A stretch of DNA of 53,288 bases from a virus (Duplodnaviria; Heunggongvirae; Uroviricota; Caudoviricetes). The stretch's first letter is position 1; each line of letters begins with the position of its first letter. The stretch is from positions 1 through 53,288 of IMG/VR virus record IMGVR_UViG_3300025133_006513, one strand, 5' to 3'. This document shows positions 3 through 43,430 of the stretch, one piece after another. A program made the position numbers and the translations under genes. The notes beneath the pieces are model-generated. The model searched no databases and had not been told where the DNA came from. It saw only the letters and a program-made list of their open reading frames with translations.

Positions 3-3000
3 CATCGCTATTTCCTGGACCCAGAGACTGGCATCTTTAGAGTCCAGTTTGGGCAAGCACGTATGCCGTTGATGCCAGTGCTCAAAGCACTGGGTGCCAC
101 GGACAGTCAGCTCCGTAAGGCGTGGGGCAACGAGTTATTCGTTGCCAACGCCAAGAAGACGGACCCGACTACGCTCAAGAAGCTCTACCGCAAGGTTACC
201 CGGAACAAGTCGCCTGAGAATGACGAAGAGATGCATCAGGCTATCCGGAACGCCTTCGCTGACATGGAGCTCGATCCCGAGGTTACTGCTCGAACCCTCG
301 GTAAACCATACGCCACTGTGAACCCAGAGGTTATCTTGGCTTCGACTGCCAAGCTGCTGCGGGTGCATAAGGGTGAGGAGAAGTCCGACGATCGTGATGC
401 TATGGCGTATCAGCGGGTTATGGGTCCAGAGGATCTATTCGCTGAGCGTATGCGTAAAGCTGGCGGTACCATGCGGAATGCCCTATGGAAAGCCACGCTT
501 CCAGGCAATCTAAAGCGTGTACCCCCTGGCCTGATGGACAAGATTGTCCGCGGGGCTATCATCGAGACAGGCCTGGGTAACCCCCTGGAAGAGATCAACC
601 CTGCGGAACTGTACGATCAACGCGTACGAGTGACACGCATGGGCGAAGGCGGTATCCCTAGTAACGACTCAGTGCCAGACGAGGCACGTAACGTACAGCC
701 AAGCCACTTGGGCTTCGTCGACCCAGTCCACACACCAGAATCAGGCAAGATCGGTATCGACGGACGCTTTGCTGTCAGAACCCTCAAGGGCAACGATGGC
801 CGGCTCTACGCTCGCTTCACCGATCCTAAGAATGGCAAACCAATCTGGAAGTCTCCCCAAGATGTTGCTGACGCGATCGTTGCGTTTCCAGGGGAGTTAG
901 AAAAGGGCGAACCTCATGTTCGTGTGCAGCATAAAGGCAAGCTGAAATTTGTTCCTAGGAACAAAGTTGACTATCAGCTTGGCCATATGACAGAGGCTTT
1001 CGGGCCCCTAGCGTCGATGATCCCGCTGAAGGGTGCAGCCTTCGGGCAGCGTATCTCTATGGGTAGTCGATTTCTTTCGCAGGCGCTACCGTTGGTCAAC
1101 GCAGAGTCCCCGCTCGTGCAATCGGGTGTCCCTGGTATGAAGGACACGTCGTTCGAAGACTTGCTTGGCGCCGATATGGGTGCTGTGAAGAGCGAAGTCG
1201 ACGGGACTGTGCTTGAGGTTACACCCAGTCACGTCAAAATACGAGGGAGGGATCGCCGTGTTCATTACGCCGAGCTCTACGAAAACCATCCGTATAACCG
1301 GAAAACCTTTGTTCACAATCGACCCACCGTTAAGGCGGGTGATGCAGTCAAAGCAGGACAACTGCTCGCTGCTTCCAATTTCACAGATGATGGAGGTACG
1401 ACAGCGCTTGGCAAGAACGCCCGAGTCGCGTACCTGCCCTACAAGGGATACAACTTCGAAGACGCAATCGTCGTCTCTGAGTCCTTCGCCAAGCGGGCTT
1501 CGAGCGAACACATGTACCAACACAGCCTCGATCTTGGCGAGGGCGTTAAAGCTAGCAAAAACGCTTACACCGCCATCCTCCCGGGTGAATACGATCGCAA
1601 ACAGCTAGATCGCTACGATGACGACGGAGTTATCAAGATTGGCGAGACAGTCCAGATGGACGAAGCACTGGTGCTGGCAGTGAAAGAACGACAGACGGGT
1701 CCACGACTTGGGCGACGTAAAGCCTCCTGGGGCGATGCATCGATTAAGTGGGAACACCATGAGGAGGGTATTGTTACCGATGTACACAAAGGCAAAAAAG
1801 GCTATTCGGTCGTCGTTAAATCCGTACACCCAACCAAGGTCGGCGATAAGTTCGCGGGTCGATACGGTGACAAAGGGGTTGTCGCAGCGATCGTACCCGA
1901 CGAAGACATGCCGCACGGGGCGGATAAAAGGCCCTACGAAGTGCTACTCAACCCGCTGGGCGTCATCGGCCGAGGTAATCCATCCCAAATCATCGAAACG
2001 CAGCTCGGTAAGATCGCCGCGATCACGGGCAAACCGTACAAACTGATTGACTTCGATGACTTGCGTGATCTTCGTGAGTTCACCGAGCAAGAGCTGCGTA
2101 AGCACGGGCTCAACGACACAGAGGACCTGATCGATCCTAAGACTGGGCGTACGCTCAAAGGCATCGAAGCAGGGAATCGATTCATGATGAAGCTCCACCA
2201 CACTGCAGAGGTTAAGCTCGGCGGTCGTGGTGCTGCTGGTGGTTATACGGCTGAGGGGGCACCCGCTAAGGGCGGAAAGTCGGGATCTAAGCGAGTTGGT
2301 ATGTTAGAGCTCAACGCTCTTTTGTCTCACGGAGCTTATCAGACTATCCGTGATGCCAACGTGGTACGCGGTCAGCGAAACGAAGATCACTGGCGAATGC
2401 TCATGTCCGGGTATACACCCCCAGAGCCTAAAGTTCCCTTCATGTACCAGAAGTTCATGGCACAGTTGAAGGGTGCTGGTATCAATCCAATCAAGGAGGG
2501 GTCCAAGCTCCAGATTCTGGCTATGACTGGCGAGGGGGCCAAAGAGCTTACTGGTAACAGGGAGATCAGAAGCTCTGAAACCGTCGACTGGCGTGTAAAC
2601 AAGCTCTCACCTATTAAAGGGGGTTTGTTCGACGAGGCCCTTACAGGTGGGCACGGAGGTAATCGCTGGAGTTACATCAAGCTACCAGAGCCTTTACCTA
2701 ACCCAGTGATGGAAGAACCTATCAGACGCATCCTCGGGCTAACGCAGAAACAGTACGCCTCTATCTTAAGTGGCGCAGACCACGTGCCTGGTCAGGAAGG
2801 ATTAACTGGGCCGATCGGTATTCAGACGGCATTAGAGGGGATCAACCTCGATAAGGAGATCGTCAAAGCCCGCGCGGATATCAAGTCAGGACGTAAGACA
2901 TACAGGGATAAAGCAGTTCGACGCTTAGAGTTCCTCAAGTCTGCCCAGAAGAACAAGCAACATCCTCGTGAGTGGATGATGGACAGAATCCCGGTATTAC

Positions 3001-3908
3001 CGCCGATCTTCCGTCCAGTGAGCATGTTCGCTGAGACTAACACGCAACTGGTCGATGACTCGAACTACCTCTACAAGGAGGCGTTCGAAGCCGCCGAGAA
3101 CCTAAAGGCACTCGGGAAGATCAGTGATGATGTGTCTGAGGAGCGATTAGCGGTCTACAAGGCTTTCAAGGCTGTCACCGGCCTGGGCGACCCTTTATCC
3201 CCTGAATTCAAGGAACAAGATGTCAAAGGTATCCTTAAGCACGTCTTCGGAACCAGTCCTAAGCATGGTACAGTGCAGAAGAAGCTGCTTGGTAGCACTG
3301 TCGACCTCGTCGGACGGGCTACTATTACGCCAAACCCTAACCTGGATATGGATCAAGTAGGGTTACCGATCGAGGAAGCGTGGACGCTGTATCAGCCGTT
3401 TGTTATTCGTAGGTTGGTTCGTCGTGGGATGGGAAAAGTCAAAGCAATGGAGGAGGCTAAGGCCCGATCGCCTTTAGCGTTGAAGGAGCTGCAGGGCGAG
3501 ATGAAAGAGCGTCCAGTGGTTATTAACCGTGCACCGGTATTGCACCGCTACGGGGTTATGAGCTTCTGGCCACAGCTTACGTCATCGAGCACGCTGGAGA
3601 TTCCGCCGCTAGTCGTCGGGGGTTTTGGGGCTGACTTCGATGGTGATGCGATGCAGTTTCACATCCCTGCGAGTGAGGGAGCAGTTGAGGAAGCAAAATC
3701 AACGTTGATGCCGTCACGAAACTTACACGCTGCTGGTGACTTCGATGTACACTATAAGCCGAGCCATGAGTATGTAGGCGGGTTATGGGCAGCGTCGACG
3801 AAGGACTCGAAGAAACCACCCAGAGTATTTAAGACAAAGAAGGACGCGATCGCTGCTTACCGCAAAGGATCGATCGATGTTGGACAGCGTGTTGAGATCA
3901 TGGAGTAA
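3..3908 (+). CDS. rpoB-rpoC fusion: Phage multisubunit RNA polymerase: beta subunit (5'-truncated at window edge) fused in frame to N-terminal half of beta'
   Basis: Frame is open from nt 3 to the ATG at 63, so the gene begins upstream. Beta motifs: RNVQPSHLGFVDPVHTPES, GYNFEDAIVVSE, GDKFAGRYGDKGVV, LLNPLGV, KRVGMLELNAL. Beta' motifs follow without a stop: GLFDEALTG, PVLPPIFRP, LLGSTVDLVGRATI, NRAPVLHR, catalytic GADFDGD (3627-3647). Confidence 0.96.
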   Translation, partial: HRYFLDPETGIFRVQFGQARMPLMPVLKALGATDSQLRKAWGNELFVANAKKTDPTTLKKLYRKVTRNKSPENDEEMHQAIRNAFADMELDPEVTARTLGKPYATVNPEVILASTAKLLRVHKGEEKSDDRDAMAYQRVMGPEDLFAERMRKAGGTMRNALWKATLPGNLKRVPPGLMDKIVRGAIIETGLGNPLEEINPAELYDQRVRVTRMGEGGIPSNDSVPDEARNVQPSHLGFVDPVHTPESGKIGIDGRFAVRTLKGNDGRLYARFTDPKNGKPIWKSPQDVADAIVAFPGELEKGEPHVRVQHKGKLKFVPRNKVDYQLGHMTEAFGPLASMIPLKGAAFGQRISMGSRFLSQALPLVNAESPLVQSGVPGMKDTSFEDLLGADMGAVKSEVDGTVLEVTPSHVKIRGRDRRVHYAELYENHPYNRKTFVHNRPTVKAGDAVKAGQLLAASNFTDDGGTTALGKNARVAYLPYKGYNFEDAIVVSESFAKRASSEHMYQHSLDLGEGVKASKNAYTAILPGEYDRKQLDRYDDDGVIKIGETVQMDEALVLAVKERQTGPRLGRRKASWGDASIKWEHHEEGIVTDVHKGKKGYSVVVKSVHPTKVGDKFAGRYGDKGVVAAIVPDEDMPHGADKRPYEVLLNPLGVIGRGNPSQIIETQLGKIAAITGKPYKLIDFDDLRDLREFTEQELRKHGLNDTEDLIDPKTGRTLKGIEAGNRFMMKLHHTAEVKLGGRGAAGGYTAEGAPAKGGKSGSKRVGMLELNALLSHGAYQTIRDANVVRGQRNEDHWRMLMSGYTPPEPKVPFMYQKFMAQLKGAGINPIKEGSKLQILAMTGEGAKELTGNREIRSSETVDWRVNKLSPIKGGLFDEALTGGHGGNRWSYIKLPEPLPNPVMEEPIRRILGLTQKQYASILSGADHVPGQEGLTGPIGIQTALEGINLDKEIVKARADIKSGRKTYRDKAVRRLEFLKSAQKNKQHPREWMMDRIPVLPPIFRPVSMFAETNTQLVDDSNYLYKEAFEAAENLKALGKISDDVSEERLAVYKAFKAVTGLGDPLSPEFKEQDVKGILKHVFGTSPKHGTVQKKLLGSTVDLVGRATITPNPNLDMDQVGLPIEEAWTLYQPFVIRRLVRRGMGKVKAMEEAKARSPLALKELQGEMKERPVVINRAPVLHRYGVMSFWPQLTSSSTLEIPPLVVGGFGADFDGDAMQFHIPASEGAVEEAKSTLMPSRNLHAAGDFDVHYKPSHEYVGGLWAASTKDSKKPPRVFKTKKDAIAAYRKGSIDVGQRVEIME

Positions 3909-4020
3909 GCCATGCCAGTAGTGCTGTCAAAATTTTCGTCAAAACCCAATACGGAATTGTGTAAACAATCAGCTACAGATATGCTGGTAAGATATCACTG
4001 ACCCAAATGGAGTTCGCCTC

Positions 4021-4746
4021 ATGGCTAAACACGAAATGAACATGACGCTTTTTGATGTCGCCGCGTGGCGACTGCAGGGCGAGGCAGAGAAGCAAGCCTT
4101 CGTCCCTCAAGGAGCGACCGACCCCGCCGCTGGCGGTGGAGCACCTCCAATGGACCCAGCAATGGGTGGCGCACCTCCAATGGACCCAGCAATGGGTGGG
4201 ATTCCCCCTGGCATGCCTCCTGGTGCACCTCCAATGGACCCAGCTGCAATGGGCATGCCTCCAGCAGCTCCGCCTGCGGCACCTCCCGCGGCCCCTGGCG
4301 CTCCAGCAGCGGGCGGCAAGCCCAAGATTGACCCAACCTTCATCTACATGGAGCTGAGCCGCGTGCGTAAGCTTCTGACGCACATGATGAAGCACACAGG
4401 CATCGACATGCCACCTGATATCCTCGACGACGGTGCGACGGCGATGATCGCCAACGGCCAGATGCCAGAGAGTCAACCGATCGGGCAGCCGGGTGCCGAG
4501 GGTGCTCCCCCTGAAGGAGGGGGAGCACCGGGTGGCCTACCAAGCATCGGGCAGTCGCCGGCGATCGATCCGATCGCTGCTGCTGGTGGTCCTGGAGGCC
4601 CTGGCGGTCCTGAGAAGGGTGCCGGTGATGTGCTTTCAATGTTCCGTGGGCCAGCACCTGCTGACGATGCTTCGCCAAACTACGCTGCGGCTGAGCAACG
4701 CATCAACGCACTATGTGACCTGTCACGAAGCCTCAACGGAAGCTAA
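4021..4746 (+). CDS. Pro/Gly/Met/Ala-rich low-complexity protein, putative internal head protein
   Basis: 241 aa ORF with GGAG RBS, APPMDPAMGG repeats and AEKQA at aa 22-26. Function is inferred from the motif and neighbourhood. Confidence 0.8.
   Translation: MAKHEMNMTLFDVAAWRLQGEAEKQAFVPQGATDPAAGGGAPPMDPAMGGAPPMDPAMGGIPPGMPPGAPPMDPAAMGMPPAAPPAAPPAAPGAPAAGGKPKIDPTFIYMELSRVRKLLTHMMKHTGIDMPPDILDDGATAMIANGQMPESQPIGQPGAEGAPPEGGGAPGGLPSIGQSPAIDPIAAAGGPGGPGGPEKGAGDVLSMFRGPAPADDASPNYAAAEQRINALCDLSRSLNGS
4141..4244 (+). repeat. In-frame 30-bp tandem repeat (two copies plus a partial third)
   Basis: GCACCTCCAATGGACCCAGCAATGGGTGG at 4141-4170 and 4171-4200; first 20 nt recur at 4225-4244; encodes APPMDPAMGG. 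Confidence 0.95.
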
Positions 4747-5007
4747 TTGATGATCGTTGAGTTGCATAATAAGCTAGGACAGCCCCAGCGTATTGAAGCC
4801 ACACGCATCGTAATACGCTCCCCTAACGGGGAAGCGTTATGCGTGGCGGTGGAAGCGGGGCCTGGCCAGTATTTCATCACACACCGTGGTGATGGGGACG
4901 AGGACATGAATCGATCCCTACGCTCGCTGGGTATTAATGAGACCGTCATCAGTGATATGCAAAATATGCCGAAGCCGCCAGGCACGCTGTGGACGCCGGG
5001 GAGTTAA
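4747..5007 (+). CDS. Hypothetical protein (86 aa) between the two beta' halves
   Basis: ORF abuts the upstream stop (TTG 4747 or ATG 4750) and fills the gap to the beta'C start. Confidence 0.75.
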   Translation: MMIVELHNKLGQPQRIEATRIVIRSPNGEALCVAVEAGPGQYFITHRGDGDEDMNRSLRSLGINETVISDMQNMPKPPGTLWTPGS

Positions 5008-5010
5008 CCT

Positions 5011-6894
5011 GTGCTGCGTACTACTATCGGACAGTTGATGACTAACGAGGCGTTGCCTCCCGATATGCGCGATTACACCCGGGTCATGGATAAAAAAGGA
5101 ATCACGGAGGTATTACGTGTTCTTGCCGAGAAACACCCAGACAAATACCGCGAAGTGGCTAAGAAGCTTTCAGACGTGGGGCGAGATATTGCTTACACTA
5201 CCGGCGGAAGCTCCTTTGGTCTTAAGCATATGCGTCCTACACCTTCTGTACTGATGTCCCGTCAGCGGTTGAATAGACGCCTCCGCGATATCCTCTCCAA
5301 CCCTCAATGGGATGATGATATCAAAGAGCAGAAGGTTGTTGAGGCCACATCGGTCGAACACGAGCGACTCCAGAAAGAGATCCTGGAAGAGGCTAAGAAG
5401 TCTGGGAACCCTCTGGCAGATCAGGTGGTATCTGGTGCCCGTGGTAACCCCGCTGGACTGAAACGCTTGATCGGTGGTGACATGATGTATGTCGATCACC
5501 ATGAGGATGTAATCCCGTTCCCTGTCCAGCGTAGCTTCGCTGAGGGCCTCGGCCCGGCCGACTTCTGGGCGTCGACGTATGGAGCCCGTAAGGGCTTGAT
5601 CGACGTGAAGTTCGCTACACAGGACGCAGGGTTCTTCTCCAAACAACTCAACCAACTGGCACATCGACTGCTCGTTACCCATCATGACGACGAAAACGAA
5701 GCAGATCCTACGGCACCTGTGCGAGGGATGCCTGTCGATGTAAGTGATGGCGACAGCGAAGGATCGCTGTTAGCCGCACCGGTTGGTGAGTATCCACGAA
5801 ACACCACGCTGACTCCCAAGATCCTCCAGGACCTGGAAAACCAGGGCATTGCGAAGATTTTGGTCAGAAGCCCTATCGTTGGTGGCCCTCCTGGTGGTGG
5901 TGTCTACTCCCGAGACGTTGGCGTGAGAGAACGAGGCGGTATGGCCCCGATAGGGGATATGGTTGGTATCGCCGCAGCACAGACACTGTCTGAGAAGCTA
6001 ACCCAAGGCCAGTTGTCATCCAAGCACTCAGGTGGTGTTAAGGGTGAAGCCAAGAGCGTGACAGGCTTCCAGCACGTCAATCAGCTTGTGCAGGTGCCCA
6101 AGACCTTTAAGGGCGGAGCAGCCCACGCACAGATCGACGGCAAGGTTACAAACGTGGAAGAAGCCCCGGCTGGCGGGCAGTACGTTACCGTTAATGCCAA
6201 ACGTCACTTCGTGGCGCCAGGCTTTGACCTCAAAGTTAAGCGAGGCGACCATGTCGAAGCAGGAGACGTCATCTCCGAGGGAATTCCCAACCCCTCGGAG
6301 ATCGTTAAACACAAAGGCATTGGGGAAGGGCGTCGATACTTCGTTGATACTTTTGCTGATGCTTATCGTGCTGGCGGCATGTATGCCAATCGTCGCAATA
6401 TTGAGCTGGTGGCTCGTGGGTTGATCGATCATGTCGAGATGATGGACGAAGATGACGACCACGTACCCGGCGATGTAGTTGGATACCAGCAGCTGGAAAC
6501 CAACTGGAAGCCCCGCGACGGCTCTCAACGACTACAACCAGATGAAGCGACGGGCAAGTACCTCGAACGCCCCGTGTTGCATTACACGATCGGTACGAAG
6601 GTAAAGCCATCAATGCTGCCACAATTCAAACAGTTCGGTGTTAATGACCTGGAAGTGCATGACGAAGAGCCCCCGTTCAAACCACATATGGTGCGAGCAA
6701 TGGCATCCATCGGACACGACCCTGACTGGATGACCCGGTTCCTGGGTTCCAATCAGAAGAAGAGCTTGTTGAACGCAACGCACAGAGGTGCTACATCTTC
6801 CGCGGAGAATACGAGTTTTGTGCCAGCAATGGCGGAAGGCTTAGATTTCGGGAAGACGTGGCCACAATCGATATTGAAGCCCCCTACCACCTAG
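5011..6894 (+). CDS. rpoC (C-half): Phage RNA polymerase beta' subunit, C-terminal half
   Basis: GTG start with GGGGAG RBS. TTIGQL (cf. TTVGR), SGARG, bridge-helix region STYGARKGLIDVKFATQDAGFFSKQL, trigger loop GIAAAQTLSEKLTQGQLSSKHSGG. Confidence 0.95.
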   Translation: MLRTTIGQLMTNEALPPDMRDYTRVMDKKGITEVLRVLAEKHPDKYREVAKKLSDVGRDIAYTTGGSSFGLKHMRPTPSVLMSRQRLNRRLRDILSNPQWDDDIKEQKVVEATSVEHERLQKEILEEAKKSGNPLADQVVSGARGNPAGLKRLIGGDMMYVDHHEDVIPFPVQRSFAEGLGPADFWASTYGARKGLIDVKFATQDAGFFSKQLNQLAHRLLVTHHDDENEADPTAPVRGMPVDVSDGDSEGSLLAAPVGEYPRNTTLTPKILQDLENQGIAKILVRSPIVGGPPGGGVYSRDVGVRERGGMAPIGDMVGIAAAQTLSEKLTQGQLSSKHSGGVKGEAKSVTGFQHVNQLVQVPKTFKGGAAHAQIDGKVTNVEEAPAGGQYVTVNAKRHFVAPGFDLKVKRGDHVEAGDVISEGIPNPSEIVKHKGIGEGRRYFVDTFADAYRAGGMYANRRNIELVARGLIDHVEMMDEDDDHVPGDVVGYQQLETNWKPRDGSQRLQPDEATGKYLERPVLHYTIGTKVKPSMLPQFKQFGVNDLEVHDEEPPFKPHMVRAMASIGHDPDWMTRFLGSNQKKSLLNATHRGATSSAENTSFVPAMAEGLDFGKTWPQSILKPPTT

Positions 6895-6902
6895 CCGTTG
6901 CC

Positions 6903-6930
6903 CTGACCTCTGCGGTTCTGTTACCATAAT
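6903..6930 (+). promoter_or_regulatory. Possible sigma70-like promoter upstream of the 797 aa gene
   Basis: CTGACC-N16-CATAAT in the intergenic gap; imperfect match. Confidence 0.3.
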
Positions 6931-6986
6931 AACAAGTCGCTTCGGCTAGGCTGGACGCCAAATTTTCCCAAGGACGAGGGTACCCC

Positions 6987-9380
6987 ATGAGCACTACGCA
7001 GCTCTCAAAGCCTGTTGCTCATTGGCAACGTGTTTGTCAATCGCATATTCGCACGCCAAATATTAAGCGTGCTGACCTGGGTGGTGATGGCCAATCCGTG
7101 CCGTTTGAGCAAGCATTTTCCAATCTTGCACACGCCTACCTTAAGGATCGCGCCCCGCAGCTTCTCGACCACGAACTGGGTTTCCAGCTCTTAGAGAAGA
7201 ACGAGGACAATGATCGCGCGGTCGGTATCTTTGGCTTCCGTGTCGGGAGTCAACTGCTCTATGCGCCAGTCTTCTTCCTCAATGGTGAATTGAAGGGTCA
7301 CGAGCTCCTGTATCTGAAGGACTCGGATACCTTTGTGCCGATGAAGGAGAACTGGATCAACTACGTGTTGAACCGCAAACCCAATATCATCGGTGAAGAG
7401 CTGGGCCCCAACCTGGCCAACGCAGGCGTCGATCGACCGAACATGGATGTCTTTCGTGAGTCGCCCGCCAAGTACGCAGCAGATCAGGCAGATCAGGCAG
7501 ACTGGCTGGCGCCGGCACTTCCCGGCCTGATGCACGTACTCGGCAACGCTATCCGCCCAGAGATGCAATGTCACGGGCTGGTCAAAGAGAACGCTGACTG
7601 TGCGCACATGTTCCTGCAGCTCCTGGACAAGCACCCCTCACTGGTATCCCCAGTCACAGAGGTCTACGGGAAGCAGATGATCAAGGACGCTATCGATACA
7701 GCGAAGACGCTGGATACGGTATCGCCCACGGGTGTGCCACGTAAACGCAAGTCTACCCACATCACCGGCAGCATCTTCACAGAGAAGTCTGCTAGCGATC
7801 TGGCTCAAGAACAACTTGCCGGTAAGCTCAAGATCTGGAAGTACGACGACAGCTCGCCAACGCGTGCCCGTCAGTGTGCAGCAGGGCTGACAGAGAAGCA
7901 GGCTCAGAACCTCAAGCGTGATGGTGTCTACGTCTCGGACGAACGCACCGAGGGCGAGGTCAGCAAAGCATACAAAGTCCAAGAGCCACTCAGCCTGATG
8001 AACCCGGACGCGAGCGGCATCTACCAGGTACTTACGAAGCCTGATGACTTCGAAGAGTGCCTGTACATCCATGGCCCCTTCAACGCCCGCGGCACCAAGC
8101 CCAACGGTGTGTTGGTGCGGATCGGCGATGGCGACAAAGCCTGGACAGAAACACACCCAGCTGCGATATACACGTCTGACGAGTATACCGGCGATACGTA
8201 CAGCGACTGGTTCGAGAAGCAACCTGAGGCAAAGAGCCTCTCCGTCGGATCGACTTACGTCCTGGTTGCCCCTAACGGCCAAGGCACAAGTGTGTTTGAG
8301 GTTGAGAGTACGCTACCGGCCGAGGGCGAGGAAAAAAGCTACGAGGTGAGGTGGCGTAACCGATGGGGTGCCCGCCGACCGGATCATCTGCCCCCAATTG
8401 CCGAACGCCGCCATGAGTATGATAGTGATTGTGCGGGTGCCGATACAGTTATGATGAATCGAATCAAGGGCCGCAAGTTCGTGGCTCGTCTTAACTGCCT
8501 GTACGTACCTGAGGGTGCCAAGGCCGTTAAGATCAAAGGTCCGGAGAAGCCCAAGAAGCACGATGGCCTCGCATATGTCGGCGATCACGAGGAATCAAGC
8601 GATCCTCCAGCCTTACGACCTGGCAACCACGTCGATCTCCAGATGGGCATCTACAAGATTTCGGAAGAACTGCAAGTCTTCAACAACGGCACTGAAGCTA
8701 TTGTTGATGGCCGACACATGACTCCGCTTGGTGCATTCGTACACTTGGTGCGCGACTACGGTTTGCGTGAAAAAACAGCCAAGGCATTGCTCACAGAAGC
8801 AGAGCTCAAGCGGGGTGTTAAGTGTCGTGTGAAGATGGCGTCGCCATACCAGGCACTCGGGCATGCCCCGACAGCGCCAGCGTTCCCTGAACCTGATCGT
8901 GGTACGGATATGTTCATGGGCTCAAACGTGCCCACTACGAACAGCTTCCAAGGCGATGAGATGGAGCTACCCGTCCAAGGGATGCAGGGTTCACCTAACC
9001 GACAACTGATGTCGGACCCTGTTGAACCACAGATGGGCCAACAGATACAAGAGGCTGCCCAGACAGGCCAGAAGGAGGTACTCGATACCGCGATGATGTC
9101 GAACCTGTTGAAGGGGACACAGAATGAGACGCTTATCGACAAGCACCTGTCGAACCTGATGAAGGGGCTCGATAGCCTCGGTCGCCTGTTGTTCAACATG
9201 TACTGGCACCACGACAAGTTCGAGGACCGGTATGGCGGCAATAACCTGCCAGAAATGACCGACGCCATGCGGAATGCCTTTGAGTCCTTGGGCGACGTTA
9301 CCCTCGAACTCAAGCAGAAATCTGTCGAGCCTTACCCAGATGAAGGTGTTGACATGGGCTTCGGCGAAGGCGAAATGTAA
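6987..9380 (+). CDS. Large putative internal head protein (797 aa)
   Basis: Long ORF with an N-terminal NIKRA and about 7 K-x-A motifs; no recognisable enzyme motif; lies in the head cluster. Confidence 0.75.
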   Translation: MSTTQLSKPVAHWQRVCQSHIRTPNIKRADLGGDGQSVPFEQAFSNLAHAYLKDRAPQLLDHELGFQLLEKNEDNDRAVGIFGFRVGSQLLYAPVFFLNGELKGHELLYLKDSDTFVPMKENWINYVLNRKPNIIGEELGPNLANAGVDRPNMDVFRESPAKYAADQADQADWLAPALPGLMHVLGNAIRPEMQCHGLVKENADCAHMFLQLLDKHPSLVSPVTEVYGKQMIKDAIDTAKTLDTVSPTGVPRKRKSTHITGSIFTEKSASDLAQEQLAGKLKIWKYDDSSPTRARQCAAGLTEKQAQNLKRDGVYVSDERTEGEVSKAYKVQEPLSLMNPDASGIYQVLTKPDDFEECLYIHGPFNARGTKPNGVLVRIGDGDKAWTETHPAAIYTSDEYTGDTYSDWFEKQPEAKSLSVGSTYVLVAPNGQGTSVFEVESTLPAEGEEKSYEVRWRNRWGARRPDHLPPIAERRHEYDSDCAGADTVMMNRIKGRKFVARLNCLYVPEGAKAVKIKGPEKPKKHDGLAYVGDHEESSDPPALRPGNHVDLQMGIYKISEELQVFNNGTEAIVDGRHMTPLGAFVHLVRDYGLREKTAKALLTEAELKRGVKCRVKMASPYQALGHAPTAPAFPEPDRGTDMFMGSNVPTTNSFQGDEMELPVQGMQGSPNRQLMSDPVEPQMGQQIQEAAQTGQKEVLDTAMMSNLLKGTQNETLIDKHLSNLMKGLDSLGRLLFNMYWHHDKFEDRYGGNNLPEMTDAMRNAFESLGDVTLELKQKSVEPYPDEGVDMGFGEGEM

Positions 9381-9390
9381 AAGGTAAAAC

Positions 9391-9855
9391 ATGCACATTT
9401 ACAAACGCGAATTTGCCGAGTCTGAAGGGACAGAGCTGATTCTACCTAGCGGTACCACTGAGCAGTGTTGGGCCATTGGCTTCCCTCCTGAAGGGAAGAT
9501 CACTCGCTTCATCCTGCAGCAATCAGCTGGTTCAAACGTAGGGGCCACGGTGAATCTGCTTGATAGGCAGGTATGTCAGGCCGGTAGCGGCAGCTCCGCA
9601 AGTCTGTCTGCGGCAGATCCTATGGCTATCGAACTAGCACAGATCTTCCCTGAGCAAACGCTAACCTCCGGCAATACATTGTCGTTGCGTGCGGGCCTGG
9701 ATGACGGCGGGCCGTGGAGTTACCGTAACCGTGAAGGCAGCTTCTCTGTGCCTGTGCGTGCGGTATACCTCTTCCTGAACATCGATGCAGGCAACGCTGA
9801 TGGCAAGCAGTTTGAGTTAGCTATCGAGTGCCAAATGGGTGGTGAACTTAACTAA
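9391..9855 (+). CDS. Hypothetical beta-rich protein (154 aa), possibly structural
   Basis: Continuous + strand ORF with a Ser/Gly linker (GSGSSASLS). Confidence 0.75.
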   Translation: MHIYKREFAESEGTELILPSGTTEQCWAIGFPPEGKITRFILQQSAGSNVGATVNLLDRQVCQAGSGSSASLSAADPMAIELAQIFPEQTLTSGNTLSLRAGLDDGGPWSYRNREGSFSVPVRAVYLFLNIDAGNADGKQFELAIECQMGGELN

Positions 9856-9857
9856 GC

Positions 9858-9881
9858 AATCTTGTTCAGCTGAACAAAATC
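9858..9881. promoter_or_regulatory. Palindromic operator-like motif, copy 1
   Basis: AATCTTGTTCAGCTGAACAAAATC with a perfect 16-bp palindrome at 9862-9877; ends 1 nt before ATG 9883. Confidence 0.7.
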
Positions 9882-9882
9882 T

Positions 9883-10833
9883 ATGAGCATCCTGGTAAAC
9901 AGACCTGATAACAAAAGGCGTCCAGCAAACTGGCGGTGGATGCGAGCGTGCGAACTTGCAGACGGAGCACGCTTAGTCCGCGGTCGCGATGATGAGATTG
10001 TGCGTTTTGCCAGTAAATTTCGTCGTCTGATGGACCGATGTGAATCGGACGAGGATAAGCTGGAGGCGCTTGACGCACAACCCGCGATGTTCGAAGCATA
10101 CACGATCTACATGGGTGAAGATGATGCGAGCGAGGTTAAGTGGGAGCTGGAAGCACGACTGCTTGGCGGCGAACCTGTAGCCTCGATCGAAGCGAAGCTG
10201 GGAATCGACCCTGCTACGATCTTCACATATGAGCGTGTGTTCTTCGATGTACTGAGCCGACGACACTCTACGAGCTTAATGGTCCATGTGGTGATCGGAC
10301 GGTCTGTACAGACTGGCCTTGCGGAGCGCGAGTACGACTGCCTATGGAAGCTCTTTAGTTATTTCGCCGGTATCCCAGTGCTGGACGCCTATATCTGGAA
10401 GTTTAATGGCGTGAAACACGTTGAAAGTGCAGATGGGGTGCGGACGGCATTCCGAGAAATTGCAAAAGATACCATAATGTCAAAGGCAGCTGTCACTGCG
10501 TTGACGCTACCAGCTAACTGGCAGAACAATGAGTTGATCCTGGGCACATGGCAGCAAATATGTGGGCAGGAGCAGATGGCCGGGCAAGCTAGTGGTGGTA
10601 CTGAAGTGATGATGCAGAACGTCGCTGTTTTGGTTGAAGGGTTCCAGCCGCTACTGCACAAGCACATACACGGCGTGGATCCAACACCAGGCGGTATTAT
10701 CGATGAGATCGAAGACACAGGTGTACGGTTACGCTCTGACGAGCTAGCTGCTATTGCCACAGGCAACGATGTGTCTGGGTTTGAACACTTCATTACCGCT
10801 AAGTTCCCTGATTCCCAAGGTGAGGACAAATGA
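9883..10833 (+). CDS. Protein with a putative helix-turn-helix (terminase small subunit-like or regulator)
   Basis: 316 aa; EPVASIEAKLGIDPATIFTYERVF resembles an HTH; no Shine-Dalgarno upstream. Confidence 0.6.
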   Translation: MSILVNRPDNKRRPANWRWMRACELADGARLVRGRDDEIVRFASKFRRLMDRCESDEDKLEALDAQPAMFEAYTIYMGEDDASEVKWELEARLLGGEPVASIEAKLGIDPATIFTYERVFFDVLSRRHSTSLMVHVVIGRSVQTGLAEREYDCLWKLFSYFAGIPVLDAYIWKFNGVKHVESADGVRTAFREIAKDTIMSKAAVTALTLPANWQNNELILGTWQQICGQEQMAGQASGGTEVMMQNVAVLVEGFQPLLHKHIHGVDPTPGGIIDEIEDTGVRLRSDELAAIATGNDVSGFEHFITAKFPDSQGEDK

Positions 10834-12557
10834 GCAACATTCCGAGACTAAGCAAACAGAGCGAGGAGTTAATCAGCTCCGCACTGTCTGCTGTAACGGA
10901 GCGCACAAACAGCGGTGAGAGTCCAAACGATGCGATCGTAAAGGTTGCATCTGATAAGGGCATCACAGCTGGACACGTGCGACTCATGGTGCGAGCGTTT
11001 AACAACGGCCGCAGCCTGGGGCATATCCGTGAACACAGCGGACTCCATGAAAAAGCAGCATCGTTTTCCCTGGCAGATGCCGGTGAGATCCTTGAGCGTA
11101 TGTTCCCGTCTAAGATTCCAACGCAAGCTGAGAAGCAGGCGTCGGTCGCTGTCGGGTCAGACTACTCTCGATCGCCGCAAGCCTGGCTGAAGCGACGCGC
11201 AGGCGGTAAGGTTCGCACAGAGATGGTCAAGACAGCCGCGGCGGCAACGCCAAAGCAACGACCAGCCTCTGCGTACGAATACCGCGACGGGCGTAAGGCT
11301 CTCAGCAATCTGGCTGATATCCGCCGGGAGCATGATCGCGTGAAAGACGCCGCGATCAAGGCTGCTTACAAGGTGGCTGCTGACGTCAGCGAGCTTGGCG
11401 AATACTTCCGCCGGCCAGACGCATTGCCCGCTGCAGAGGTGGCTACGAACGCTGCCTACATGTACGGGGAACCTGCGAATAAGCTGGTCACCCACGCTGG
11501 TGCCATGCAGAAAAGTGCACGAGTAGCCAACAGGGCACGACCCGTTGACTGGAATGCTACACCTTACTCGTTGATCAAACAAGCACTCAGCAGCATGACT
11601 GACTTCACAATGAAGCGGGCATCGCTCGATACACATGCGAGTGGCTTGGCTGAAAAGAAAGCGGAGGAACTCCGCCCTTTTGGGTTAGGCCTCGAGAACG
11701 TGATTACCGGCTCGCTATGGGACAATCAATCGCAGATTGAGAAGCAGGCTGTTGGCCTGTTTGGTCTGGGGTTGGTTGGAGCGACCGGTGGTATGGCTCG
11801 AGGCATGGCACAAAAGATGTCACCGAAGACACGTGAAGATCTTGTTCAGGATCGATTGTTTGAGCTATCTAGCCCGCAGCATGAGGATAAGTTGCGGGCT
11901 ATCAGGGTGCGGACTATGCTGCACGAATTGATGAACTCGGATCCAATCATCAGCGGTTATGACCCACAGGAGGTGCTGGAAGCGTATAACCACCTTGCTG
12001 AGGTATCACCGCAGGTAATGCAGCAACGTATTACCGCGCAGGGTTTGCTGCGTAAATACCTGGAACAAGCGTCAGCACTCGACGCATTCGATGCAAACGA
12101 GATGTTGAGTGTAGAGAAGGGCATCACTGAGCGAAACTCACCGAAAGCCTTGTCGAAGACACACCAGACGGGTGCTGCCCGTGAGCTTGGTCCTGCAATC
12201 GGTACCGACACAGCTAAAGGGGCAGATGGCGACCCGCTGGCTAAGGCGTTAAGTGGTTACGAACGTATCACTGAAAAGCCAGCCGCGAACGGCAAGAGTC
12301 TCGCTGAGCAGTACGATAGGTTAGGATGGCGAGAAGCACTCTTTGGTGGTGAGAAGAAGGAACCAGAAGAGGACTCAGGCCCTGGGGTTGTAATTAGTGA
12401 CAAGCGCCCAGAGAAACCAGAAGCAACGGAAGAACCCGAAGCTACGCTACCGCCACCACCTGCACCAATGGATCTCGACGCCTGGTTCGCAGACTCGAAC
12501 GCAGACGCAAGACAACAAGAGAAGTCTGACCTTGAGCAGGGTATTTTCCCCACGTAG
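10830..12557 (+). CDS. Putative internal head/ejection protein with a Gly-rich hydrophobic segment
   Basis: 575 aa, about 14 K-x-A motifs, no Cys; VGLFGLGLVGATGG follows IEKQA; ATGA overlap with the upstream gene. Confidence 0.75.
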   Translation: MSNIPRLSKQSEELISSALSAVTERTNSGESPNDAIVKVASDKGITAGHVRLMVRAFNNGRSLGHIREHSGLHEKAASFSLADAGEILERMFPSKIPTQAEKQASVAVGSDYSRSPQAWLKRRAGGKVRTEMVKTAAAATPKQRPASAYEYRDGRKALSNLADIRREHDRVKDAAIKAAYKVAADVSELGEYFRRPDALPAAEVATNAAYMYGEPANKLVTHAGAMQKSARVANRARPVDWNATPYSLIKQALSSMTDFTMKRASLDTHASGLAEKKAEELRPFGLGLENVITGSLWDNQSQIEKQAVGLFGLGLVGATGGMARGMAQKMSPKTREDLVQDRLFELSSPQHEDKLRAIRVRTMLHELMNSDPIISGYDPQEVLEAYNHLAEVSPQVMQQRITAQGLLRKYLEQASALDAFDANEMLSVEKGITERNSPKALSKTHQTGAARELGPAIGTDTAKGADGDPLAKALSGYERITEKPAANGKSLAEQYDRLGWREALFGGEKKEPEEDSGPGVVISDKRPEKPEATEEPEATLPPPPAPMDLDAWFADSNADARQQEKSDLEQGIFPT

Positions 12558-42689: not shown

Positions 42690-43430
42690 ATGCCAAAGAA
42701 TATGCTAGAGCCTGACTACCAGTTGCCATATGACAATTGGGTAGCTGATCCATCCCCTACGAACACTGGGCAGCTGATTAAAGCTGTCAAACCGGTGCTG
42801 AGTTCAGCGGTGCGAGCGTACGGGGGTACGTCTGCCAGGAGCACGAACATTAAGTCACAGGCCAAGCGTATGGCTGCCGACGCCTTCAGTTCGTATGATC
42901 CAGCACGGGGCACATTGAAATCACACCTCATGTCACGCCTTCAGCGGTTACGCCGAGTGGCAGCCCAGCAGCGGCAGGTCATCCGTGTCCCAGAGCAGGT
43001 AGCTCTCGATCAGATGCGATCGGACGCTGCGACACGTGAATTGGAAGAGAGCCTGGGTTATCCTCCATCAGACCAGCAACTCGCGGATTACACGAATTTG
43101 TCGCTTAAACGCCTCGCATACATCAGAGGGAGTGAGCGCCCACTCGCGGAGAGTACGATTTCGCGTGGTGGCGAGGAGGGCCTTGGTGGCTACGATCCGC
43201 GGGTTCGATCGCTAGCAAAACCCGCAGACGCGTGGGAGGAGCTTATCTACGATGACATCGATGAGACTAACCAGTTCATTATGGAGCGTGTGCTCGGAAT
43301 GCACGGACATCAGCCAACCAAGCCCAGTCAGGTGGCTGTGATGTTGAAAATTAGCCCTGCCGCCGTAAGCCATCGCATGGCCCAGATTCAAGCAAAACTG
43401 GACAAGCGAGAAGACTTGGGGATGATCTAA
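42690..43430 (+). CDS. Sigma70-family sigma factor (group 3, FliA/WhiG-like)
   Basis: Region 2 LIKAVKPVLSSAVRAY...YDPARG; IRVP; region 3 LEESLGYPPSDQQLADYTNLS; region 4 HTH TKPSQVAVMLKISPAAVSHR; GGAG RBS. Confidence 0.9.
   Translation: MPKNMLEPDYQLPYDNWVADPSPTNTGQLIKAVKPVLSSAVRAYGGTSARSTNIKSQAKRMAADAFSSYDPARGTLKSHLMSRLQRLRRVAAQQRQVIRVPEQVALDQMRSDAATRELEESLGYPPSDQQLADYTNLSLKRLAYIRGSERPLAESTISRGGEEGLGGYDPRVRSLAKPADAWEELIYDDIDETNQFIMERVLGMHGHQPTKPSQVAVMLKISPAAVSHRMAQIQAKLDKREDLGMI

Follow-up and report, generated by a model that had tools for sequence, protein, structure and literature searches.

The window analysed here comprises 53,288 nt, i.e. the first 53 kb of a 153-kb linear viral contig (IMG/VR record IMGVR_UViG_3300025133_006513, Caudoviricetes) with an estimated completeness of 71 %, from a large phage of marine origin that is uncultured. 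At its start lie two genes which, judged from their sequences, encode the beta and beta' modules of a bacterial-type multisubunit RNA polymerase (RNAP) with an intact catalytic motif. The first open reading frame (ORF) joins beta to the N-terminal half of beta' (beta::beta'N), and the C-terminal half of beta' (beta'C) is encoded by a separate gene downstream. The two genes are not adjacent, a point absent from the first-pass annotation, as 1.1 kb with two ORFs (4021-4746 and 4747-5007) separates them. The layout is defined by the following features.

3..3908, plus strand: beta::beta'N gene, identified by the order of its Pfam domains and by PDB matches; its 5' end is cut by the contig start, with 1301 of 1456 codons present.
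2466..2528, plus strand: beta/beta' junction, i.e. LKGAGINP (2466-2489), IKEGSK (2490-2507) and LQILAMT (2508-2528).
3627..3647, plus strand: catalytic Mg-binding motif GADFDGD of beta', identified by sequence and Pfam.
3888..3908, plus strand: end of beta'N and split point, RVEIME followed by TAA (3906-3908), at about residue 554 of E. coli beta'.
5011..6894, plus strand: beta'C gene with a GTG start, 627 aa (amino acids), identified by Rpb1_5, phmmer matches to the PDB and alignments.

In the first ORF, Pfam places Rpb2_2, Rpb2_3 and Rpb2_6 at residues 48-742, followed by Rpb1_1/Rpb1_2 at residues 970-1234. The beta part matches PF00562 (E 1.4e-54), PF04565 and PF04561, and the beta' part, with GADFDGD, matches PF00623 (E 2e-23). 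Searches of the PDB with phmmer align residues 9-830 with bacterial beta 164-1057 in cyanobacterial numbering (best E 5e-61) and residues 906-1299 with about residues 143-539 of B. subtilis beta'. Another assembly (P0002) holds an identical full-length beta::beta'N of 1456 aa, of which the window lacks the first 155 codons; in Salmonella/E. coli numbering, beta 117-1336 is matched by fused residues 96-983 and beta' 160-550 by residues 1068-1454 of the fused protein. The second ORF carries Rpb1_5, the bridge-helix/trigger-loop region (PF04998, E 2.4e-21), and aligns with M. tuberculosis beta' 663-1190 as well as with E. coli beta' 713-939 and 1196-1320, the lineage-specific insert of E. coli being absent. 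The Rpb2/Rpb1 domain models, which the first-pass annotation had named as a check, are thus found in the order expected of beta followed by a divided beta'.

That annotation had described LKGAGINP as running straight into LQILAMT, and this holds with only the six residues IKEGSK between the end of beta and the start of beta', making the connection essentially linker-free. Alignment shows that the acidic tail of bacterial beta and about 15 N-terminal residues of beta' are absent at the junction. The chain was also said to stop soon after the catalytic motif, and indeed the TAA lies 86 codons past GADFDGD. Likewise, the beta'C protein starts with MLRTTIGQ, placing the proposed TTVGR equivalent, TTIGQ, at residues 4-8. 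In E. coli numbering the split sits after RVKVRITE (547-554) and before TTVGR (572-576), i.e. at about beta' 554/570. The window reads ...VGQRVEIME, stop, and then MLRTTIGQL..., compared with the continuous ...VNQAMKVGA-K-TICAGQV... of L072/L073-type relatives. Since the loop at this position has 12-20 residues in bacteria and is minimal in phages with a full fusion, the alignments place the cut in a length-variable surface loop.

Several independent data sets bear on the reality of this layout. Logan contigs from four other marine metagenome studies were identical to the window over 2300-4186 and 4270-5300, with zero differences. These independently matched stretches include the beta/beta' junction, the TAA stop and the beta'C start, with 4150-4290 as the only variable stretch; the support at the junctions that the first-pass annotation wished to see is therefore present at both, and no stop or frameshift occurs at the fusion. 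When IMG/VR was scanned with the junction region, 79 contigs read the junction in one piece. At least 75 viral contigs with 41-79 % identity share the exact end of the fused ORF (...GxIxxxxxVxIxE, stop), and in these relatives beta'C, where present on the same fragment, starts with ML[KR]TT[IL]GQ. Of the 8000 candidates scored in a protein search with beta'N, 1839 were homologues at E ≤ 1e-5; the best 120 of these were all fused, with Rpb2_6 and Rpb1_2, and the longer ones (1790-2244 aa) contained intein domains. The beta'C search yielded 4682 representative matches at E ≤ 1e-3. In L066 and L069, both of which are incomplete contigs, no beta'C gene was detected within 8 kb of the fused one.

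Cultured phages share the arrangement, although none of them belongs to the subclade of the window. By tblastn against GenBank phages, phage Arash (OQ632216.1) encodes Gp206, 1525 aa and annotated as 'beta', and, 4.7 kb and nine genes downstream, Gp216 with 606 aa. The Vibrio phages D69, D148 and D181 have the same layout; the D69 proteins, of 1527 and 609 aa, are encoded 0.6 kb apart, and all are annotated as 'hypothetical'. The break point in Arash and D69 is the same as that of the window within about two residues, Arash gp206 and D69 0261 ending where the beta'N of the window ends. Considering that independent assemblies are identical and that at least 75 contigs and two cultured lineages share the break point, the fused-and-split layout is real and standard for a large lineage including Arash and D69, and is not peculiar to this genome. 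A decaying beta' gene, or an assembly or frameshift artefact, would likewise leave a stop codon within a chain that is single in relatives. However, both halves are intact and 50-80 % identical across the lineage, the independent assemblies agree, conserved genes occupy the gap, and both Arash halves were detected as proteins (PMC10585845), which makes such damage extremely unlikely.

The first-pass annotation had reasoned that novelty would lapse if the layout were already catalogued as standard for its lineage. It is standard across the lineage, but no paper cataloguing it was found: in a searchable library that is incomplete, so that absence is not proven, no paper described a single-chain or a fused-and-split form, and neither of two jumbo-phage reviews (PMC7824862, PMC13282480) refers to an Arash-type or a fused beta::beta' polymerase. 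Moraphages (PMC12619734) were considered as a description of this lineage and rejected, as those phages have no RNAP genes. Public records annotate the proteins concerned as beta, beta' or hypothetical. What is new here is the order of events, the exact loop that was cut, the two-gene gap cassette, the losses of zinc sites, the single polymerase set and the independent support for the junctions.

Insertions of ~1 kb are common in the polymerase genes of this family, i.e. at about fused residues 225-247, 435, 618-662, 760 and 1090 and at about beta'C residues 203-210 and 320-353 (carriers: L003, L017, L030, L050, L052, L058, L060, L063-L065, L071, L074, L080, L089 and L098-L106). Many homologues carry intein/LAGLIDADG domains (PF14528, PF14890), with ORFs of up to about 3000 aa, and in D181 and D148 a homing endonuclease is annotated within the polymerase gene.

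Considering how common inteins (PF14528, PF14890) and ~1-kb insertions at several sites are in this gene family, a single chain might be restored from the two halves, either through a split intein or through splicing of an RNA that spans the gap. We regard this as very improbable: the end of beta'N and the start of beta'C are contiguous residues in the full fusions, leaving nothing for intein halves, the gap encodes two conserved proteins, and the Arash proteome contains Gp206 and Gp216 as distinct proteins (PMC10585845). A split intein was rejected, as there are no extra residues at either end of the break, and a search for an intron in 3700-5200 gave no Rfam match other than a chance-level sRNA (small RNA).

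The history of the two genes can be read from their relatives. In L072 and L073 (35 % identical), the break is bridged without interruption by single ORFs of 2078 and 2064 aa, and about 50 fetched viral contigs carry a complete beta::beta' ORF, which measures 2038-2213 aa or, where inteins are present, up to about 3000 aa. Trees were estimated by quick searches from concatenated beta and beta', rooted on three bacterial sequences, with 64 sequences under LG+G4 and 36 under C20-PMSF; no Helicobacter or Wolbachia sequence was among them. In both trees all fused forms constitute one clade (support 100), with full fusions on every deep branch. The two-gene phages (13 sequences) constitute another, excluding all fused sequences (support 100), and the split forms, Arash and D69 included, all fall into one clade of 13 sequences (support 100). 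Because the trees place the split forms inside the fused clade, fusion preceded fission.

One sequence runs counter to this simple order, i.e. the full fusion L097, which sits on a very long branch nested inside the split clade, with a Shimodaira-Hasegawa-like approximate likelihood ratio test (SH-aLRT) value of 85-87. Its placement needs two fissions, one re-fusion or a misplaced branch. In the approximately unbiased (AU) test, a tree with all split sequences as one clade was not rejected (difference in log-likelihood 8.45, p 0.113). The best reading of the trees is fusion first and one later fission, in which case L097 would be misplaced or re-fused. The first-pass annotation had proposed a fusion plus fission independent of other known cases; the trees support independence from the Helicobacter/Wolbachia fusions and from the cyanobacterial split, the phage fused clade being well supported apart from the three bacterial sequences. 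The mapping of fusion and split points across relatives, which it had also advised, gave a break point common to at least 75 contigs, Arash and D69 that is read through in the full fusions. Taken together, the identity, the architecture and the fusion-then-fission history of this polymerase appear very well founded.

In-frame TGA codons were seen in two relatives. In L220 (IMGVR_UViG_3300035698_022190), a contig of 36 % GC, the beta::beta' gene at 2815-8838 has in-frame TGAs at 2926, 3331 and 7105, one of them near the split site, and is otherwise intact, which suggests that this phage reads TGA as a sense codon. L188 (IMGVR_UViG_3300007510_000032; 53 % GC) has one in-frame TGA at 4951, within the beta portion of a beta::beta' gene that is full in all other respects; a split at another place, recoding of this codon or an error could account for it.

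No alpha subunit (PF01000) was found in the contig of the window, a 100 %-complete close relative, Arash, D69 or the L072 contig, whereas this search detected one in each of 14 control genomes. As the same five genomes each hold one beta-barrel and one beta'-barrel locus, a single polymerase per phage is indicated. Host alpha may be used by the phage polymerase. Outside the polymerase locus, the window encodes a candidate initiation factor:

42690..43430, plus strand: probable divergent sigma-70-family factor, 246 aa, identified by weak Pfam and PDB matches and by a match to Arash gp10.

This ORF matches Sigma70_r3 weakly (E 2.8e-4, 21.4 bits, below the Pfam cut-off of 25.3), and all 17 of its weak PDB matches are sigma factors and colinear (best E 0.027). 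It also matches Arash gp10, which is annotated as sigma (E 2.9e-9), and has homologues in the D69, L002, L072 and L097 genomes. Its product is probably the initiation factor of the phage polymerase.

The polymerase is further marked by the loss of zinc sites and cysteine, the sites concerned being the following.

2622..2669, plus strand: deleted N-terminal zinc ribbon site of beta', where in the alignment GLFDEALTGGHGGNRW replaces GLFCARIFGP...CxC...CxxC...RMGH.
5683-5712 (HDDENE) and 5878-5922 (VGGPPGGGVYSRDVG), plus strand: replaced second zinc site in beta'C, identified by alignments.

The zinc-ribbon site of the window reads GLFDEALTGG-HGG-NRW. According to the alignment, the N-terminal zinc ribbon is lost in the whole fused clade and kept in bacteria and in the metagenomic RNAP-encoding Caudovirales (mReC); the second site is replaced in the subclade of the window and kept by most single-chain forms. 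Neither of the two beta' zinc sites of a bacterial-type core is therefore found in the window polymerase. The latter has no cysteine in its 2083 residues (1456 + 627), nor is there any in the 246-aa sigma-like protein, at a mean of 1.2 % cysteine in the ORFs of the window. Most polymerases of the fused clade have about 4 cysteines, which in the aligned sequences are the four of the second zinc site, compared with 16-35 in mReC and 16-28 in the bacterial sequences.

The gap between the polymerase halves holds two genes.

4021..4746, plus strand: first gap gene, 241 aa, rich in Pro/Ala/Gly/Met with a short helical core; positional counterparts of like build occur in the subclade of the window.
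4747..5007, plus strand: second gap gene, 86 aa, of a family found directly upstream of beta'C in about 50 related contigs.

The genes are tightly packed: the stop of the 241-aa gene abuts the start of the 86-aa gene, and 3 nt separate the stop of the latter from the start codon of beta'C. In the subclade of the window the gap nearly always consists of two genes, encoding about 240 aa and 70-90 aa. The first product has an N-terminal helix, Pro/Ala/Gly/Met-rich repeats, a conserved helical core and a low-complexity part. Of 75 loci, 61 have a small ORF directly abutting beta'C, and roughly 50 of the small ORFs are clearly members of one family. The AlphaFold2 model of the 86-aa protein (predicted local distance difference test score, pLDDT, 88.6) has five strands and one helix, and no convincing match to it was found with Foldseek against the PDB (best E 0.6), the wide VIA-align search (best Z 2.8) or PDB profiles (best E 0.21). 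Considering that the 86-aa family is present in the L066 contig and absent from the Arash, D69, L072 and L097 genomes, the two-gene cassette was gained after the split, within the subclade of the window.

The proline-rich repeat of the 241-aa gene (PPMDPAMGG type, 4150-4290) shows indel differences between metagenome samples, and short-read assemblies break there. Downstream of beta'C, a 797-aa ORF (6987-9380) is found in nearly all relatives of the subclade with 34-72 % identity; it had no Pfam or PHROGs match, no usable match in the protein atlas and no detectable similarity to the Arash portal. Pfam and PHROGs likewise gave no match for the two gap genes or for the ORFs at 9391-9855, 9883-10833 and 10830-12557. 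A scan of 3700-7100 for sigma-70 promoters and terminators gave nothing above shuffled expectation. C-terminal extensions of roughly 300-1100 aa occur in 107 of the 150 best beta'C cluster representatives; the seven inspected start with Pro/Ala/Gln/Gly-rich low complexity followed by variable regions, with DUF5661 in two and DUF4269 in one. They are unrelated to the 797-aa neighbour, and the beta'C of the window has none.

Our data indicate that the two polypeptides form the catalytic core of the phage's own bacterial-type multisubunit RNAP. The first chain carries beta head-to-tail with the N-terminal half of beta' (clamp and double-psi barrel with GADFDGD), and the second supplies the remainder of beta' (bridge helix, trigger loop, jaw and cleft). 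A single-chain beta::beta' ancestor, of a kind widespread in large uncultured phages, was cut in a surface loop on the branch leading to this phage, Arash and D69, and genes came to lie between the halves after the cut. The halves presumably reassemble non-covalently, like cyanobacterial gamma and beta', with the covalent beta::beta' link taking the place of the alpha-dimer scaffold and initiation proceeding through the sigma-like protein. The polymerase would be packed in the capsid, delivered with the DNA and start transcription independently of the host. As there is only one polymerase set per genome, the same set probably also serves later stages of infection. We give this explanation as a whole, including carriage in the virion, a probability of roughly 0.6.

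In virion preparations of Arash, Gp206 gave 3516 spectra, the most of any protein, together with 1210 for Gp216 and 467 for the sigma Gp10 (PMC10585845), and the fused gene directly follows the portal gene in Arash and D69. In view of this proteome, the position beside the portal gene and the loss of cysteine and zinc sites, we somewhat favour a virion-borne polymerase. Several points weigh against this explanation. The Arash authors caution that abundant, highly expressed enzymes might co-purify with particles (PMC10585845); virion proteins were shown for Arash only, which is 31 % identical to the window polymerase; and in the window, Pfam and PHROGs recognised neither a portal gene nor any other head gene beside those of the polymerase. 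Moreover, the sigma assignment rests on weak matches below the Pfam cut-off and, the contig being 71 % complete, the absence of alpha from this phage rests on its relatives.

The polymerase might instead remain unpackaged, be made after infection and transcribe middle and late genes, with the early genes left to the host RNAP, which the phage sigma might redirect. The possibility of co-purification and the lack of a recognisable head or portal gene in the window fit this alternative, and the sigma-like protein could also serve the host core enzyme. On the other hand, an unpackaged enzyme sits uneasily with Gp206 as the top-scoring protein of Arash virions, with sigma and beta'C present too (PMC10585845), and with the portal gene as the immediate upstream neighbour of the fused gene in Arash and D69; the clade-wide loss of cysteine and of zinc sites would also fit a protein spending time outside cells. 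Overall, an unpackaged polymerase is possible but rather unlikely.

It is tempting to go beyond the favoured virion-borne polymerase and to regard the whole fused clade as a distinct kind of polymerase adapted to the virus particle, i.e. one- or two-chain, alpha-free, (nearly) zinc-free, almost cysteine-free, sigma-dependent, ejected with the DNA and the sole transcriptase of the phage, with the gap proteins (241 aa and 86 aa) as new factors associated with the polymerase that help to assemble, package or eject its halves. This is a speculative and, at present, improbable extension. To our knowledge, all known bacterial RNAPs need an alpha dimer to join beta and beta' and use the beta' zinc sites. 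The present lineage appears to manage without alpha, and this subclade also without either zinc site or any cysteine. The enzyme is still similar enough to bacterial ones to be modelled on them and apparently still uses sigma. With about 2080 residues, in one or two chains, it represents a compact and naturally minimal sigma-dependent RNAP, of which two cultured members, Arash and D69, are available for biochemistry and cryo-EM (cryo-electron microscopy).

Among known systems, Arash, D69, D148 and D181 are closest. The window shows the Arash-type layout, for which the literature has no family name, i.e. one ORF of beta::beta'N ending before TTxGR and a separate downstream beta'C (1525-1527 aa and 606-609 aa in these phages), and falls into the same clade, with a homologous sigma-like gene. 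Arash and D69 differ in that identity is 26-31 %, the four cysteines of the second zinc site are kept and the 86-aa gap family is absent; in Arash the gap spans 4.7 kb with nine genes, in D69 it contains two tiny ORFs and in the window two conserved genes. The paper on Arash mentions neither the fusion in Gp206 nor the split of beta' (PMC10585845). The single-chain forms (e.g. L072/L086, L090-L097 and L166-L218) share the junction, the deletion of the zinc ribbon and the depletion of cysteine, but have one ORF without break or gap genes, and most keep the second zinc site.

In the RpoC1 (gamma) and RpoC2 subunits of cyanobacteria and plastids, beta' is divided shortly after the catalytic barrel and the chains reassemble; there, beta is unfused and the genes are adjacent. 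As estimated from the coordinates of 8syi_D and 8h3v_B, the cyanobacterial break lies about 20-45 residues nearer the C-terminus than the phage break, leaving TTxGR on the N-terminal half, as the first-pass annotation had stated. The lineage thus offers a clean natural experiment on protein fusion and fission, with a cut loop close to, but not at, the cyanobacterial site. In the RpoB-RpoC of Helicobacter and Wolbachia, the C-terminus of beta is joined to the N-terminus of an unsplit beta'; these polymerases are cellular, include alpha and omega and have both zinc sites. The phage clade also has beta and beta' joined, but its beta' is split, and it stands apart from the three bacterial sequences in the trees.

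The resemblance to mReC that the first-pass annotation had seen holds in part. The mReC also encode bacteria-like beta and beta' recognised by Pfam and COG, and are the group next to the fused clade in the trees. However, they have two separate genes with an unsplit beta' of 900-1390 aa, keep the N-terminal zinc ribbon and form their own clade (support 100), outside which the window polymerase falls in both trees. Inclusion among mReC was based on separate beta and beta' genes, each of at least 800 aa, and a beta' with NADxDGD (Weinheimer & Aylward 2020, PMC7481178); in the window, one ORF holds beta plus the catalytic motif, and the remaining piece of beta' has 627 aa without it. Since mReC are defined by two genes, a retained zinc ribbon and a separate clade, the sequence comparisons identify the window enzyme as a relative and not a member. 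In the supplementary rows inspected, beta and beta' are two different proteins and none serves as both, and the mReC paper uses 'fused' for crAssphage only (PMC7481178). The survey does not list the present family, and its requirement for two large subunits may explain why (PMC7481178). Two candidate contigs of the mReC supplement, L197 (149,482 bp) and L213 (152,423 bp), both of which fall into the two-gene clade, carry a separate beta' (about 900-1070 aa) followed by beta (about 1000-1070 aa). This order, the reverse of rpoB-rpoC and of the fused genes, was also seen in L187, L189, L194, L195, L202-L205, L208, L211, L212, L216 and L219. Another cultured phage group with a bacteria-like RNAP subunit is the Kleczkowskaviridae (about 207 kb), in which Rhizobium phage RHph_Y65 (L082; MN988525.1) encodes an unsplit beta' of 1127 aa with 16 cysteines at 8959-12342.

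The multisubunit RNAPs of phiKZ and AR9 also have beta' divided after the catalytic barrel, with one set carried in the virion and no alpha (PMC7824862). They differ in being made up of four or five far more divergent pieces, with beta split too, two sets per genome and no sigma factor. In contrast, the window encodes one set with an intact and fused beta, a sigma-like gene and an easily detected similarity to the bacterial enzymes.

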